From a virus, in UHGV virus genome UHGV-0133741: a DNA stretch of 64,000 bases, one strand, 5' to 3'. The notes under the pieces are model-generated. The model had not been told where the DNA came from. It worked only from the letters and a program-made list of their open reading frames with translations, and searched no databases. Position 1 is the first letter of the stretch; each line of letters opens with the position of its first letter. The translations under genes and the position numbers were made by a program. Of this stretch, positions 29,451 through 55,038 are shown in pieces.

Positions 29451-30644
29451 GTGACCTGGGACGATCACAAGAAGAATTTTGCTCGCCTGGCGCGAGATGG
29501 TGGTTACACCATCGCACAGTATGCCGCCGAGTTTAATCTTAACCCTAATACTGCACGTCGTTATCTCCGTGCCTTCAAAGAAGACACCAGGACAGCGGAC
29601 AGCCGCAAGCCAAATAAGCCAGTCAGGAAGCCACTAAAAAGCATGATCATTGATCACTCTAATGATCAACATGCAGGTGATCACATTGCGGCTGAAATAG
29701 CGGAAAAACAAAGGGTTAATGCCGTTGTCAGTGCCGCAGTCGAGAATGCGAAGCGCCAAAATAAGCGCATAAATGATCGTTCAGATGATCATGACGTGAT
29801 CACCCGCGCCCACCGGACCTTACGTGATCGCCTGGAACGCGACACCCTGGATGATGATGGTGAACGCTTTGAATTCGAAGCTGGCGATTACCTGATAGAT
29901 AACGTTGAAGCGCGGAAGGCCGCGCGCGCTATGTTGCGTCGTTCCGGAGCTGATGTTCTGGAAACCACTCTTCTGGAAAAGTCTCTTTCTCATCTCCTTA
30001 TGCTGGAGAACGCCAGGGATACGTGTATTCGCCTGGTGCAGGAAATGCGCGATCAGCAAAAAGGCGATGATGAAGGTACTCCACCTGAATACCGTATCGC
30101 GAGCATGCTAAACAGCTGTTCCGCGCAGATAAGCAGCCTGATCAACACCATTTACAGCATCCGGAATAACTATCGAAAAGAAAGCCGGGAGGCGGAAAAG
30201 CACGCTTTGTCTATGGGGCAAGCTGGCATTGTTAAACTGGCATACGAACGAAAGCGTGAAAATAACTGGTCAGTGCTGGAAGCAGCTGAATTCATCGAGG
30301 CGCATGGCGGGAAAGTGCCGCCCCTGATGCTGGAGCAAATCAAAGCCGATCTGCGTGCTCCTAAGACCAATACCGATGATGAGGAAAGGCAAACAGCCGT
30401 CGGTGGCCCTTCTCTTGAAGATCTGGACAAAGTTGCGCGAGAACGGGCCGCCAACCGCCGCGTCGATGCCGCATTGTGGATTGAGCAGCGTAGGGAAGAA
30501 ATCGCCGATATCGTTGATACAGGCGGTTATGGAGATGTTGATACTGAAGGTGTATCAAACGACCCATGGCTGGAACAAGACCTGGACGAAGACGAGGAGG
30601 AAGACGAAGAAGTTACCCGCAAGCTATACGGGGATGATGATTAA
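29451..30644 (+). CDS. pacA: terminase small subunit PacA
   Basis: 397 aa; GTG start with AAGGAAG RBS; contains the hexamer pac repeats; acidic C-terminus. Confidence 0.85.
29644..29830 (+). other. pac packaging site (TGATCA/G hexamer clusters)
   Basis: Four TGATCA between 29644 and 29683, then TGATCG/TGATCA/TGATCA/TGATCG between 29774 and 29830, each containing a Dam GATC site. Confidence 0.75.
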
Positions 30645-32128
30645 TGGCCAGAAGTTGCGTAACGGATCCACGTTGGCGCGAGCTGGTGGCGCTATATCGT
30701 TATGACTGGATTGCGGCCGCTGATGTTTTGTTCGGCAAAACACCTACCTGGCAGCAGGATCTGATTATTGAGTCTGTGCAGGAACAGGGTAGCAAGACAT
30801 CTGTTTCGTCTGGTCACGGTACCGGGAAATCAGACATGACTTCTATCATGATCATGTTGTTCATAATCATGTATCCCGGTGCCCGAGCCATTATCGTTGC
30901 GAACAAAATTCAGCAGGTAATGACCGGTATATTCAAGTACATCAAGATAAACTGGGCTACTGCCACCAGCCGTTTTCCATGGCTTGCTGATTATTTTGTT
31001 CTGACAGAAACCGCTTTCTATGAGGTTACTGGTAAAGGTGTATGGACTGTAGTACCGAAGGGCTTTCGTCTGGGAAGTGAAGAAGCTCTCGCCGGTGAAC
31101 ACGCAGATCATCTTCTGTATATTATCGATGAAGCCTCCGGTGTCAGTGATAGAGCTTTCGGTATCATCACCGGTGCTCTTACCGGACAGGATAACCGCAT
31201 CTTATTGCTGTCACAGCCTACACGCCTAAGCGGCTATTTCTACGATACACACCATAAACTGGCCAAGCGTCCTGGTAACCCTGATGGCGTTTATACGGCG
31301 ATCACGCTTAACAGTGAGGAATCACCGTTGGTAACGCCAGCATTTATCAAAATGAAGCTGGCGGAGTACGGCGGGCGTGATAACCCTATGTACATGATTA
31401 AGGTACGCGGCCTATTCCCTAAATCACAGGATGGCTTCCTTCTTGGACGTGATGAGGTTGAACGTGCAACGCGGCGGAAAGTCAAGATTGCAAAAGGATG
31501 GGGCTGGCTTGCATGTGTGGACGTTGCTGGTGGTACGGGACGGGATAAGTCCGTTATCAATATTATGATGGTGTCCGGCCAGCGAAATAAACGCCGTGTA
31601 ATCAACTATCGAATGCTGGAATACACAGACGTTACAGAAACGCAGCTTGCCGCCAAAATTTTCGCAGAATGTAATCCTGAGCGATTCCCAAATATCACCA
31701 TAGCGATAGACGGCGATGGCCTGGGTAAAGCAACGGCGGATCTGATGTACGAGTATTATGGTATTACCGTACAGCGTATACGCTGGGGTAAAAAGATGCA
31801 TAGCCGTGAAGATAAGAGCCTGTACTTTGATAAACGTGCTTATGCCAACGTTCAAGCCGCAGAGGCCGTAAAATCTGGTCGTATGAGACTGGATAAGGGT
31901 AATGAAACTATTGAGGAAGCGTCGAAAATCCCTGTAGGGATTAACTCCGCAGGTCAATGGAAGGTGATGAGTAAGGAGGATATGAAGAAAAAACTCAACC
32001 TGCACTCACCAGACCATTGGGATACATATTGTTTCGCTATGCTGGCGGATTATGTTCCCCAGGATGAAGTGCTTAGCGTCGAAGACGAAGCGCAGGTTGA
32101 TGAAGCTCTGGCATGGCTTAATGAATAA
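30644..32128 (+). CDS. pacB: terminase large subunit PacB
   Basis: 494 aa; Walker A SGHGTGKS, Walker [10 protein letters not shown]; start overlaps the pacA stop. Confidence 0.88.
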
Positions 32129-52813: not shown

Positions 52814-53608
52814 ATGACAGCACAAAATACTAAAACCATTCAATACCGCCTGCGTAATGGCCAGAGTGTCGAAGTGACCATCAATAATGATGGTGTGCCT
52901 GGCGAAAAGGTTTCGATCTCTGATCTGGCTATCGAAAAAACCATCATGTGCCACCTTGGCTTTACTGAAGAAGTGAGCAAAAAGCATGGTGTAGCGATCT
53001 GGCGCACAATGGATACTGGCATGCGCAGATTCATTACTGCTCGTACCCCTGGTATGACCATGATGGACCTCATGCAGATTGCGCCGCTGTTTGAGTGTGA
53101 ACCTTTGGATGTATTCAGCAATCCAGCCATCTGCCAGCAGTTATATGGTGAGATGAAACTCGCGGTTACCCCCATTGTGCTGCATGAAGGATCGCTTGCT
53201 GGCGTGTGGAAAGTAGAGCGTATTTCAAGCTACATGCCCTTCCACTTCCATGTCAACGGCATAATCACTGGTGAAAACCAACCTGTTTCCGTTACAAAGT
53301 CAGACCTCAAGCGCGCAATTCTTGAAGCAAGTTGTCGAGTTATCGGCCTGGGCAAACAGTCTTATGTTTCCTTCCCGGCTGGCCCTGAAGGCCCGGCAGA
53401 AATTCTGATTATGGATGCCGATCTGCTCTGGCAAATACAGTTTCTGATTGGCAAAAGCATCATCCGTGCTGAAGAACTCGATCAGTACATTACCTGCACG
53501 ATGACGGATGAAGTCAAAAGTGTGGCTATAGCCAATGCCCGGACCCTGTGTCGTGCTGCATTAACAGAACTGCAAGAAAACACCACGGAAGAGGTGGAAA
53601 GTGATTAA
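52814..53608 (+). CDS. hypothetical protein
   Basis: 264 aa; start overlaps nothing, 3' end overlaps the next gene by 8 nt. Confidence 0.5.
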   Translation: MTAQNTKTIQYRLRNGQSVEVTINNDGVPGEKVSISDLAIEKTIMCHLGFTEEVSKKHGVAIWRTMDTGMRRFITARTPGMTMMDLMQIAPLFECEPLDVFSNPAICQQLYGEMKLAVTPIVLHEGSLAGVWKVERISSYMPFHFHVNGIITGENQPVSVTKSDLKRAILEASCRVIGLGKQSYVSFPAGPEGPAEILIMDADLLWQIQFLIGKSIIRAEELDQYITCTMTDEVKSVAIANARTLCRAALTELQENTTEEVESD

Positions 53609-54695
53609 TCGTATACAGAATGAATCTGCCTGGTTAGCACTGATAGAACGGTATAAAGACAATTGGGAACTGGCAGCAAAAGAGTTGCTTGATATTGAGT
53701 TAACACCTCATCAGGCAAAAATTATTAACGCGATAAAGAACACCGGAGCCAAAGTCACTGCCACCACACCACATGGTATTGGGGAAACCTCTATTGTGGC
53801 AGTGATTAGCATCCTGCAAACAATACTATATTCGTGTTCCCGTACAGTGGTTGTTTCTCCTGCTATTAACGATAGTCGAAAAACAATAATTGCCTATATG
53901 TTCCGTTATTGGGAGCGAGTTACCCAAAAACACCCTTTTCTTGGCAATCATTTCAGAATGCACCATGATAAAGGGTTGGTGCATATCAGTGAAACATGGG
54001 GATGCGTCTATATAACCTATTGTCTGAATAACGAAGTGTCTCTGGCTGGTTTTACTGGGCCGCACGATCTTTTCATCGTTATTAACTCGGCGGAAATCAG
54101 CGATCGCGCTCATGCAGTGATAACAGGCAATTTAACCAATTATGACTCGCGCCTGCTGTTGCTGTCGAAACCATCAGAACACGAGAAAGGGTATTTTTAT
54201 GATTCGCATCACCGATTGGCCCATAGTAAGAACAATCCTGCTGGTTTTTTCACGGCGATAACTCTCAGCACAGAGGATTCACCTCTCGTTTCTGAAGCAT
54301 ATCTTGAATTCAAAGCCAAAGAGTTTGGTGGGCGCAATGGCGATGAATATCGCCGATTGATCTTGGGGAAATTCCCTGGGATTCGGGAGTTGATGGAAAA
54401 ATCATCTGTTCCCCGTAATATGCACTTCACAATGACTGACGGTAGTAAATGGGTAGTGCCTACGATCGTGATCGCTAAACACCATGCGAAACATCACGCT
54501 CAAAAACACAACTCCAGCACATTAGACTGGCTGAAAGCCTATACAATACCGTTATTCTCAGCAAACCATAACGCTATAGCTGAATGGGCTAAACAAATTC
54601 CCTGGCGGGATGTGGCTGAAGAGGCATTTGTCGAAAAACCACCAAGAGATTTGCACGAGCACTGTTGGCTGACATCAGAAAAGAGCTTCTCGTGA
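53601..54695 (+). CDS. terminase-large-subunit-like ATPase-domain protein (degenerate PacB paralog)
   Basis: 364 aa; collinear with PacB 30644..32128 (LLLSKPSEHEKGYFYDSHHRLA...AITLSTEDSPLV vs [21 protein letters not shown]...[12 protein letters not shown]); Walker A Lys and Walker B Asp-Glu replaced; no nuclease domain. Confidence 0.6.
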   Translation: MINRIQNESAWLALIERYKDNWELAAKELLDIELTPHQAKIINAIKNTGAKVTATTPHGIGETSIVAVISILQTILYSCSRTVVVSPAINDSRKTIIAYMFRYWERVTQKHPFLGNHFRMHHDKGLVHISETWGCVYITYCLNNEVSLAGFTGPHDLFIVINSAEISDRAHAVITGNLTNYDSRLLLLSKPSEHEKGYFYDSHHRLAHSKNNPAGFFTAITLSTEDSPLVSEAYLEFKAKEFGGRNGDEYRRLILGKFPGIRELMEKSSVPRNMHFTMTDGSKWVVPTIVIAKHHAKHHAQKHNSSTLDWLKAYTIPLFSANHNAIAEWAKQIPWRDVAEEAFVEKPPRDLHEHCWLTSEKSFS

Positions 54696-54700
54696 GGTAA

Positions 54701-54727
54701 AAATCCCGCCGATTGGCGGGATTTCTT
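54701..54727. terminator. bidirectional intrinsic terminator
   Basis: AAATCCCGCC-GATT-GGCGGGATTT perfect 10-bp stem between convergent genes. Confidence 0.6.
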
Positions 54728-55038
54728 CAATATACGATCTGGTCTACATGATCACCAAAATCATCGTCGTCGTCGTCCTCATCGCCACCATCTACTGCTG
54801 GCCAATCAACAAACCAGCCAGCGTAAAGATGCAGCGTTCGGAGAACATCACTTGCGGGAGCATCAAGGGTGTTAACGAATCCCATATAGCTATTGGGATT
54901 TGCTCCAGCTATGGCTTCAGCGATCATGTCCTCGGTAATGTCACCGGAGATAATGCTTAAACGCCCGGAAACTTCTTCATTATCATCAAATTCGATAATG
55001 GCATCTCCGCCTAATGGCGCTGCGATTTTAATCTGCAT
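54727..55038 (-). CDS. small acidic protein
   Basis: 103 aa ending in a poly-Asp run (GGDEDDDDDDFGDHVD); last gene of the minus-strand Dar-like operon. Confidence 0.45.
   Translation of the reverse strand: MQIKIAAPLGGDAIIEFDDNEEVSGRLSIISGDITEDMIAEAIAGANPNSYMGFVNTLDAPASDVLRTLHLYAGWFVDWPAVDGGDEDDDDDDFGDHVDQIVY

Follow-up and report, generated by a model that had tools for sequence, protein, structure and literature searches.

psiTerL, an ATPase-dead and nuclease-less paralog of the large terminase PacB in a P1-like phage-plasmid

The 64,000-nucleotide stretch of virus genome UHGV-0133741 analysed here (the window) encodes, at positions 53601-54695, a protein of 364 amino acids that is a pseudoenzyme; it arose when the ATPase domain of PacB, the terminase large subunit (TerL), was duplicated long ago. 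The window is that of a P1-like phage-plasmid, carrying pacA, pacB, c1, cre, prt, pro, lyz and ssb in P1 order together with 15 sites that match the C1 operator consensus, where 0.3 would be expected. The name psiTerL was coined in this analysis for the product of the 364-residue open reading frame (ORF). Judging from the variation among its alleles, psiTerL is kept by purifying selection as an optional cassette and is not a decaying relic.

Homology to PacB without the catalytic residues

Aligned with the PacB of the window, psiTerL is 34% identical over 265 amino acids with 4 gapped positions (BLASTP, E=5e-51) and is collinear with it from residue 11 to about residue 272, bearing out the original prediction that the protein follows the PacB ATPase domain. 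The features on which the comparison rests are listed here.

53601-54695, + strand: psiTerL, 364 amino acids, GTG start and TGA stop (54693-54695); ATPase-dead, nuclease-less PacB paralog.
53601-54386, + strand: TerL-type ATPase-fold domain, amino acids 1-262, collinear with PacB 1-262; template modelling (TM) score to the P74-26 TerL ATPase domain 0.68, normalised to the target.
53763-53789, + strand: degenerate Walker A motif, amino acids 55-63, TTPHGIGET (PacB, SSGHGTGKS).
54069-54095, + strand: degenerate Walker B motif and catalytic glutamate position, amino acids 157-165, LFIVINSAE (PacB, LYIIDEASG).
54387-54692, + strand: C-terminal tail domain, amino acids 263-364, unrelated to the TerL nuclease domain.
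30644-32128, + strand: pacB, 494 amino acids, catalytically intact large terminase; the reference paralog, outside the psiTerL module.

Within Walker A, three residues of PacB are replaced in psiTerL, namely G57 by proline, K62 by glutamate and S63 by threonine. At Walker B, PacB 157-166 pairs without gaps with psiTerL 156-DLFIVINSAE-165, which places Ile161 at the position of the Walker B aspartate and Asn162 at that of the catalytic glutamate. The loss of the Walker A lysine and of the Walker B Asp-Glu pair had both been predicted, and both are confirmed, but the proposed pairing of Asp-Glu with Asn and Ser gives way to Ile161 and Asn162. The lysine, serine, aspartate and glutamate columns are 100% invariant in all 44 PacB-family homologs of our alignment (48-90% identical to PacB), where only psiTerL and two close relatives deviate from them. 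Across the seven psiTerL alleles examined the Walker A residues are identical (7/7), and across the wider psiTerL clade the Walker B Asp/Glu positions vary freely.

The fold of the domain is that of a large terminase. An AlphaFold2 model built on the PacB-family alignment is confident (pLDDT 88, pTM 0.84), and its top Foldseek matches in the Protein Data Bank (PDB) are Sf6 gp2 (E=2.6e-8), the P74-26 TerL ATPase, T4 gp17, HK97 and D6E, all of them large terminases; the best viral structure matches in BFVD are likewise TerLs. At the profile level, psiTerL matches phrog_5902 over residues 1-364 with E=3.8e-181 (PacB itself scores 1.1e-150), a membership that speaks for homology only since this PHROG carries no function label, and it also matches phrog_2, the TerL family, with E=2.9e-7. 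Searches of Pfam, NCBIfam, PADLOC and PDB sequences returned nothing for psiTerL or for IsaA, the product of the gene upstream, and PADLOC has no family for psiTerL, IsaA or the downstream Hxr at E<=0.1. When psiTerL was tested for five features of a functional TerL, the fold was present and the other four, the Walker A Lys-Ser/Thr, the Walker B Asp-Glu, the nuclease domain and adjacency to a small terminase gene, were all absent. The alignment with PacB and the structure prediction that had been suggested as checks thus found Walker motifs that are not intact and a fold that is a terminase fold.

Homology between the two proteins runs collinearly through the entire ATPase domain, which has the ASCE fold of TerL in both, and what remains common to them extends to individual motifs. 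Conserved in both the PacB and psiTerL clades are 24 positions, which include the QQ pair (Q37, Q38), the P-loop glycines, the SxP of the C-motif (S189/P191), the GxFYxxHH motif (G197-F-Y-x-x-H-H), ExSP (E225-x-S-P), GG, Y250 and GxF(P) (G256-x-F). By contrast, 34 PacB-conserved positions are lost in the psiTerL clade: besides the Walker Lys/Ser, the Asp and the catalytic Glu (K62, S63, D161 and E162), about 30 other invariant positions are replaced, and the basic residues K98, K130, K138, R194 and K253 are among those lost. Only 8 positions are conserved specifically in the psiTerL clade and there is therefore no sign of a new active site, so that, by its conservation pattern, psiTerL looks as if its active site had decayed and no new catalytic centre had taken its place. 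Identity to PacB peaks in residues 197-262 (45-52%), and among close psiTerL alleles residues 1-50 and the tail vary least.

PacB continues into an RNase H-like nuclease domain, whereas psiTerL continues into an unrelated C-terminal tail. BLAST detects no similarity of psiTerL to the PacB nuclease domain, the alignment stopping at about residue 272; a comparison of the tail profile with the PacB nuclease-domain profile gives a probability of 0.1 (hhalign); and tblastn finds no nuclease-like sequence elsewhere near psiTerL. A MAFFT alignment had hinted that the tail might be a decayed nuclease domain, a candidate ruled out by the profile-profile probability, and a search for nuclease-domain remnants downstream of the short psiTerL forms described below found none. 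The tail matches positions 407-489 of phrog_17928 and occurs in other contexts (P and L numbers here and below are our designations of proteins and loci). It is free-standing in the metagenomic protein P0218 and in gene_35 of Cronobacter phage JK004 (L018:5010-5306), which adjoins genes for a DnaB-type helicase and a methylase, and it forms the C-terminus of ORF36 of Xanthomonas phage CP2 (L017:2765-4300), a 511-residue DUF1351-like protein whose gene is flanked by a DUF2303 gene and an ERF recombinase gene. These comparisons indicate that the nuclease domain is gone, as had been claimed, and not merely diverged, and that the tail is a separate conserved domain, so that psiTerL is not a simple truncation of PacB.

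The psiTerL clade and its retention

When 1.84 billion representatives were searched exhaustively with a profile, further relatives of 252-444 amino acids emerged (P0124, P0125, P0127, P0128, P0129, P0131 and P0133), to which a further protein-database search added few family members. All of them lack the Walker A lysine and the Walker B Asp-Glu, with substitutions that differ from protein to protein, and all either end just past the ATPase domain or run into a non-nuclease extension. Together with the window psiTerL and P0002 they form one clade with 99% bootstrap support, sister to the entire PacB clade, in a neighbour-joining (NJ) tree over 255 columns, and the nine clade members are 32-50% identical to each other. 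Their genomic settings are of the P1 type: L006 and L007 belong to P1-like elements in which pacA-pacB are intact and genes for a C1-type repressor and a Cre-type recombinase are present; L006 additionally carries phd/doc, humD and hot; and L010 carries RepL, hot and other P1-type genes on a fetched stretch without pacAB. By these findings the psiTerL clade is an old, retained pseudoenzyme lineage of P1-type phage-plasmids. A separate degenerate pair, P0161 (L003:644-1450) and P0273 (L004:635-1447), branches elsewhere in the NJ tree; these Walker-degenerate, TerL-ATPase-like proteins of about 270 residues lie on short metagenomic contigs, and each is followed by an ORF of 93-104 amino acids.

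Close relatives of the window gene are common. A megablast search located psiTerL in 120 PLSDB plasmids at 92-99.7% identity, near full length in 119, and its 90% protein cluster has 851 members. All seven alleles examined are 1095 nucleotides long and free of stops and indels, at synonymous divergence (dS) of up to 0.18. The ratio of nonsynonymous to synonymous divergence (dN/dS) lies between 0.09 and 0.52 in pairwise comparisons; between the window copy and its most divergent partner, that of L012, it is 0.34 (Fisher p=1.7e-5, from rounded site counts). For isaA the ratio is about 0.1.

We considered how probable it is that psiTerL is nothing but a functionless remnant of a pacB duplication that is still to be lost. 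The loss of all catalytic motifs would agree with this, as would the dispensability of the gene, which is absent from P1, SJ46 and RCS47, and the dN/dS of psiTerL (about 0.3), higher than that of IsaA (about 0.1). Such a remnant would, however, hardly be expected to persist as length-invariant intact ORFs in about 120 plasmids and in 7/7 alleles, with dN/dS significantly below 1 and with a clade that endures at 32-50% mutual identity across divergent elements. It would also leave the confident predicted fold to be accounted for, as well as a conserved ribosome-binding site (RBS) and start codon that are embedded in isaA only where psiTerL is present. Because the gene is intact in so many plasmids, stop-free in every allele, constrained at dN/dS below 1 and part of a persisting clade, we regard a functionless remnant as very improbable.

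Variation along the gene is uneven. Codons 88-146 (window 53862-54038) have raised dS as well as raised dN in the Escherichia albertii alleles (L012, L013), which indicates intragenic recombination between psiTerL alleles. The variable sites in codons 88-109 at first looked periodic, as if a surface helix were under positive selection; this candidate was rejected, since dS is equally raised and dN/dS is about 0.5, as expected of a recombined segment.

The cassette, its expression and isaA

The genes and signals around psiTerL are the following.

29451-30644: pacA, adjoining pacB.
52092-52108, + strand: C1 operator (P1 Ossb, formerly Op21) in the ssb promoter region, with 1 mismatch to the operator consensus.
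52128-52616, + strand: ssb, first gene of the presumed operon.
52814-53608, + strand: isaA, 264 amino acids, with the psiTerL RBS and start codon within its last codons.
53591-53597, + strand: Shine-Dalgarno sequence GAGGTGG, followed by the GTG start at 53601-53603, inside the 3' end of isaA (isaA TAA, 53606-53608).
54700-54724, both strands: G+C-rich hairpin AAAATCCCGCC-GATT-GGCGGGATTT, terminator-like, between the convergent psiTerL and hxr.
54727-55038: hxr, convergent with psiTerL, with ddrB beyond.

The local gene order is thus ssb, isaA and psiTerL, met by the convergent hxr and ddrB. psiTerL lies about 21.5 kb from pacAB (29451-32128), in agreement with the original prediction, and about 3.5 kb downstream of an ORF (48388-50097) that matches the P1 portal gene prt by size and position. 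While pacB stands next to pacA and is essential in P1, psiTerL stands away from pacA and is optional. In the second P1-like lineage described below a psiTerL homolog lies about 5 kb from pacB, and no consistent linkage to packaging genes is apparent.

The locus adjoins the dar/ddr anti-restriction operon and is a recognised variable region of P1-like elements, called RD-2 (PMC6906374) or region 2 (PMC9603915). In phage P1 itself the position of psiTerL is taken by IS1 and the unrelated gene isaB. We rejected isaB as a psiTerL remnant, as it has no similarity to psiTerL or PacB and homology to P1 ends at about the isaA stop codon. SJ46, which has no psiTerL, delimits the insertion more closely. 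There the same isaA codons read GAAGTGG...AGC, with no GTG and a weaker Shine-Dalgarno sequence, and the hairpin (minimum free energy -20.7 kcal/mol, z = -5.4) that follows the psiTerL stop in the window directly follows the isaA stop. The psiTerL cassette is therefore bounded exactly by the isaA stop codon and the shared terminator-like hairpin.

The ssb promoter region of the window is identical to the annotated P2ssb/Ossb of P1, and no terminator-like site was found on the + strand between ssb and isaA, which are separated by a spacer of 197 bp. Both observations point to a likely early, C1-repressed co-transcription of ssb, isaA and psiTerL. A late-promoter-like sequence at the isaA/psiTerL junction, AAGTGATTAATCGTATACA (53599-53617, +), has one mismatch to the -22/-10 pattern derived from LPlyz; we rejected it as being at chance level (5 matches to the pattern found, 1.3 expected) and downstream of the GTG.

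The gene into which the psiTerL start is embedded is itself little characterised. IsaA belongs to phrog_2326, which has no assigned function, and otherwise to no recognisable family; a single-sequence structure model is unusable (pLDDT 35). It has no similarity to PacA, and we discarded the idea that it is a paralog of the small terminase. That isaA and psiTerL form a module, as originally proposed, is borne out in part. The genes overlap, and in a second P1-like lineage of E. coli (L006, L021), at a different genome position, IsaA is again followed by a tail-bearing psiTerL with an overlapping start (47%/46% identity); there the pair comes after cre, dut and a DUF2829/Tad2-like gene, with phd-doc or humD facing it. 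The proposal does not hold as a fixed association, for IsaA is common without psiTerL and other psiTerL subfamilies have different neighbours. PLSDB holds 336 records with IsaA, 120 with psiTerL and 617 with pacB; isaA occurs without psiTerL in P1, SJ46 and RCS47, the second lineage also has psiTerL-less variants, and in other elements IsaA is not adjacent to psiTerL. IsaA thus looks, from its distribution, like a widespread P1-lineage gene in its own right. Distant homologs at 24-33% identity are found in other P1-like elements, a Pantoea plasmid among them (L007:6361-7035, L010:19402-20175 on the - strand and L022:3255-4049), and none of these homologs adjoins a psiTerL.

In several P1-like plasmids of two lineages a DUF2829/Tad2-like gene lies immediately upstream of isaA, often after dut (L013:12-713, L014:36-713, L016:42-719, L006:8515-9201, L021:2829-3491 and L023:2838-3500); the window has no such gene at that place. 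The short psiTerL forms come after either a radical-SAM gene or a gene for a Ref-like RecA-dependent nuclease with an overlapping start. The latter arrangement is seen at L007:9336-10792 and also in L008 and L009, where, in another P1-like element, the short Walker-dead P0131 has its start within the end of the Ref-like nuclease gene (PF16786), and the overlap suggests translational coupling with a separately encoded nuclease.

With such neighbours, psiTerL might be an accessory of DNA metabolism, a non-catalytic scaffold that works in early replication or recombination (in concatemer formation or end protection, for example) with the single-stranded DNA-binding protein SSB, IsaA or the Ref-like nuclease and apart from packaging. 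The operon partners would fit, being ssb in the window, dut in L006 and L021 and the Ref-like nuclease gene whose stop overlaps the P0131 start, as would the homologs of the tail, which lie beside helicase and methylase genes in JK004 and in a fusion gene between those for DUF2303 and the ERF recombinase in CP2. Nevertheless, the neighbours differ between subfamilies, the argument is one of guilt by association only, and many PacB-invariant basic residues that could be DNA contacts have been lost. We consider such a role unlikely.

The position in a variable hot-spot and the two-gene coupling with IsaA would also be in keeping with an exclusion factor, in which psiTerL, made in a lysogen as a TerL-derived sensor or poison, would engage the small terminase, large terminase or portal of a phage or related element that enters the cell and would prevent its DNA from being packaged, with IsaA as a possible partner. 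There is conceptual precedent in satellite proteins that bind helper terminase subunits, namely Ppi of Staphylococcus aureus pathogenicity islands (SaPIs) and Rpp of phage-inducible chromosomal islands (PICIs). However, a gene downstream of a C1-repressed promoter would probably be off in lysogens; moreover, psiTerL and IsaA have no PADLOC match and IsaA is widespread without psiTerL. Exclusion of incoming phages thus appears quite improbable, and more so than a role in DNA metabolism.

Possible roles of psiTerL

Because the residues for ATP hydrolysis and DNA cutting are lost and the gene has nonetheless been kept, psiTerL would be expected to act by binding. The roles put forward originally, regulation or decoy activity in the control of packaging or in interference with other phages, are still plausible as hypotheses. 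The reading we favour, tentatively and as a possibility that falls short of being probable, is that psiTerL is a non-catalytic mimic of PacB which, by binding PacA or PacB itself as a partner of PacB, would tune or block the cleavage of pac or the assembly of the motor. Incapable of hydrolysing ATP or cutting DNA, psiTerL would then resemble PacB and act stoichiometrically. Its synthesis would start from the early, C1-repressed ssb promoter, ahead of the late-expressed PacA and PacB, and the protein would bind one or the other through parts still common to it and PacB, that is, the N-terminal helices and most strongly residues 197-262. Binding would hold back or adjust pac cleavage and the building of the motor, in its own element or in a related co-resident P1-like element, with a second contact that might be provided by the tail and, in this lineage, by the translationally coupled IsaA. 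In P1, isaA is non-essential and pacA and pacB are essential (PMC10695390); P1 has no psiTerL, and this dispensability, set against the essentiality of pacAB, fits a modulator.

Several points weigh against this proposal. The PacB of its own genome resembles psiTerL no more than foreign PacBs do, so that we rejected co-evolution or gene conversion with the cognate PacB and see no co-evolution signal. The neighbours of psiTerL are early DNA-metabolism and accessory genes (ssb, dut, DUF2829/Tad2-like, Ref-like nuclease, radical SAM) and not packaging genes, and the tail domain is found elsewhere in replication or recombination modules. Poisoning its own motor would be costly to the phage. Furthermore, we infer the early expression of psiTerL from the annotation of P1, and the monophyly of the psiTerL clade is that of an NJ tree, where long-branch attraction may have exaggerated it.

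Proteins with which psiTerL can be compared fall into three groups, the closest described analogue being, by description, vs.8 of T4. This stand-alone paralog of the ATPase domain of gp17 is, like psiTerL, a second copy of a TerL ATPase domain without the nuclease domain, and its gene lies apart from those of the terminase (PMC13601566). It is reported to keep Walker A and Walker B and to activate EcAvs2 (PMC13601566), whereas psiTerL has lost both motifs. The mode of binding that we propose for psiTerL resembles that of SaPI Ppi and PICI Rpp. These are small, non-enzymatic satellite proteins that alter packaging by binding terminase subunits, and their target is the small subunit TerS; they differ from the phage-borne, TerL-derived psiTerL in being satellite-encoded and in having a fold unrelated to TerL. 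The delta-prime subunit of clamp loaders is an ATPase-fold subunit that no longer hydrolyses nucleotide and has a structural or regulatory part within an oligomeric motor. It belongs to another superfamily branch and is an analogy only, by which psiTerL might be imagined as a member of the PacB ring.

The recognition of TerL by bacterial immunity raises a different explanation. The ATPase domain of TerL suffices to activate EcAvs2 and Upx, and what Avs3 and EcAvs2 detect is the active site with its bound ATP (PMC13601566). An early and abundant psiTerL that mimics the shape of the TerL ATPase could occupy such sensors (Avs1-3, Upx) without triggering them and thereby blunt abortive infection when the late PacB appears. 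A copy that preserves the fold and is dead at the ATP site is what a non-activating mimic could look like, and the likely early, C1-controlled expression would suit it. Several aspects of the genomic setting would also suit counter-defence cargo: the variable accessory hot-spot of P1-like elements (PMC6906374, PMC9603915), the adjoining dar/ddr anti-restriction operon, the typical presence/absence polymorphism and, in several elements, a DUF2829/Tad2-like gene directly upstream of isaA-psiTerL, Tad2 being an anti-Thoeris sponge. On the other hand, losing the very features that Avs2 and Avs3 recognise may simply abolish binding, and the tail and IsaA would be left without an obvious role. Neither PADLOC nor the catalogue paper that we searched for TerL-fold anti-defence proteins yielded a match, and there is no signature of diversifying selection, the variable segment 88-146 also having the high dS of a recombined stretch. 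We think it doubtful that psiTerL is an immune decoy. With the same reserve we regard the more general idea that psiTerL mimics the ATPase domain of its own TerL either to blind TerL-sensing receptors (Avs1-3, Upx) or to act as a dominant negative between related phage-plasmids. If such mimicry were true, it would be the first phage example of a most conserved enzyme turned into a non-catalytic decoy.

No protein of tailed phages is more conserved than TerL, which is a hallmark of their classification and a main target of bacterial pattern-recognition immunity. Copies of it that are selectively kept without either enzymatic activity would make up a new class of phage pseudoenzyme, and literature searches found no Walker-dead terminase paralog, no TerL decoy and no study of the P1 hot-spot that names the psiTerL gene. 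psiTerL gives a handle on the control of packaging initiation in P1-type phages; it likewise gives one on the question whether phages evade Avs- and Upx-type sensors by mimicry of their own core proteins, and on the role of the long-unexplained isaA locus of P1.

The annotation of the gene is not uniform. RefSeq/PGAP records label it 'hypothetical protein', and two GenBank records named 'P1', MH422554.1 (L002:3902-4996) and MH445380.1, label the Walker-dead gene 'terminase large subunit', a mis-annotation that can lead TerL-based phylogenies astray, as well as predictions of the mechanism of packaging.

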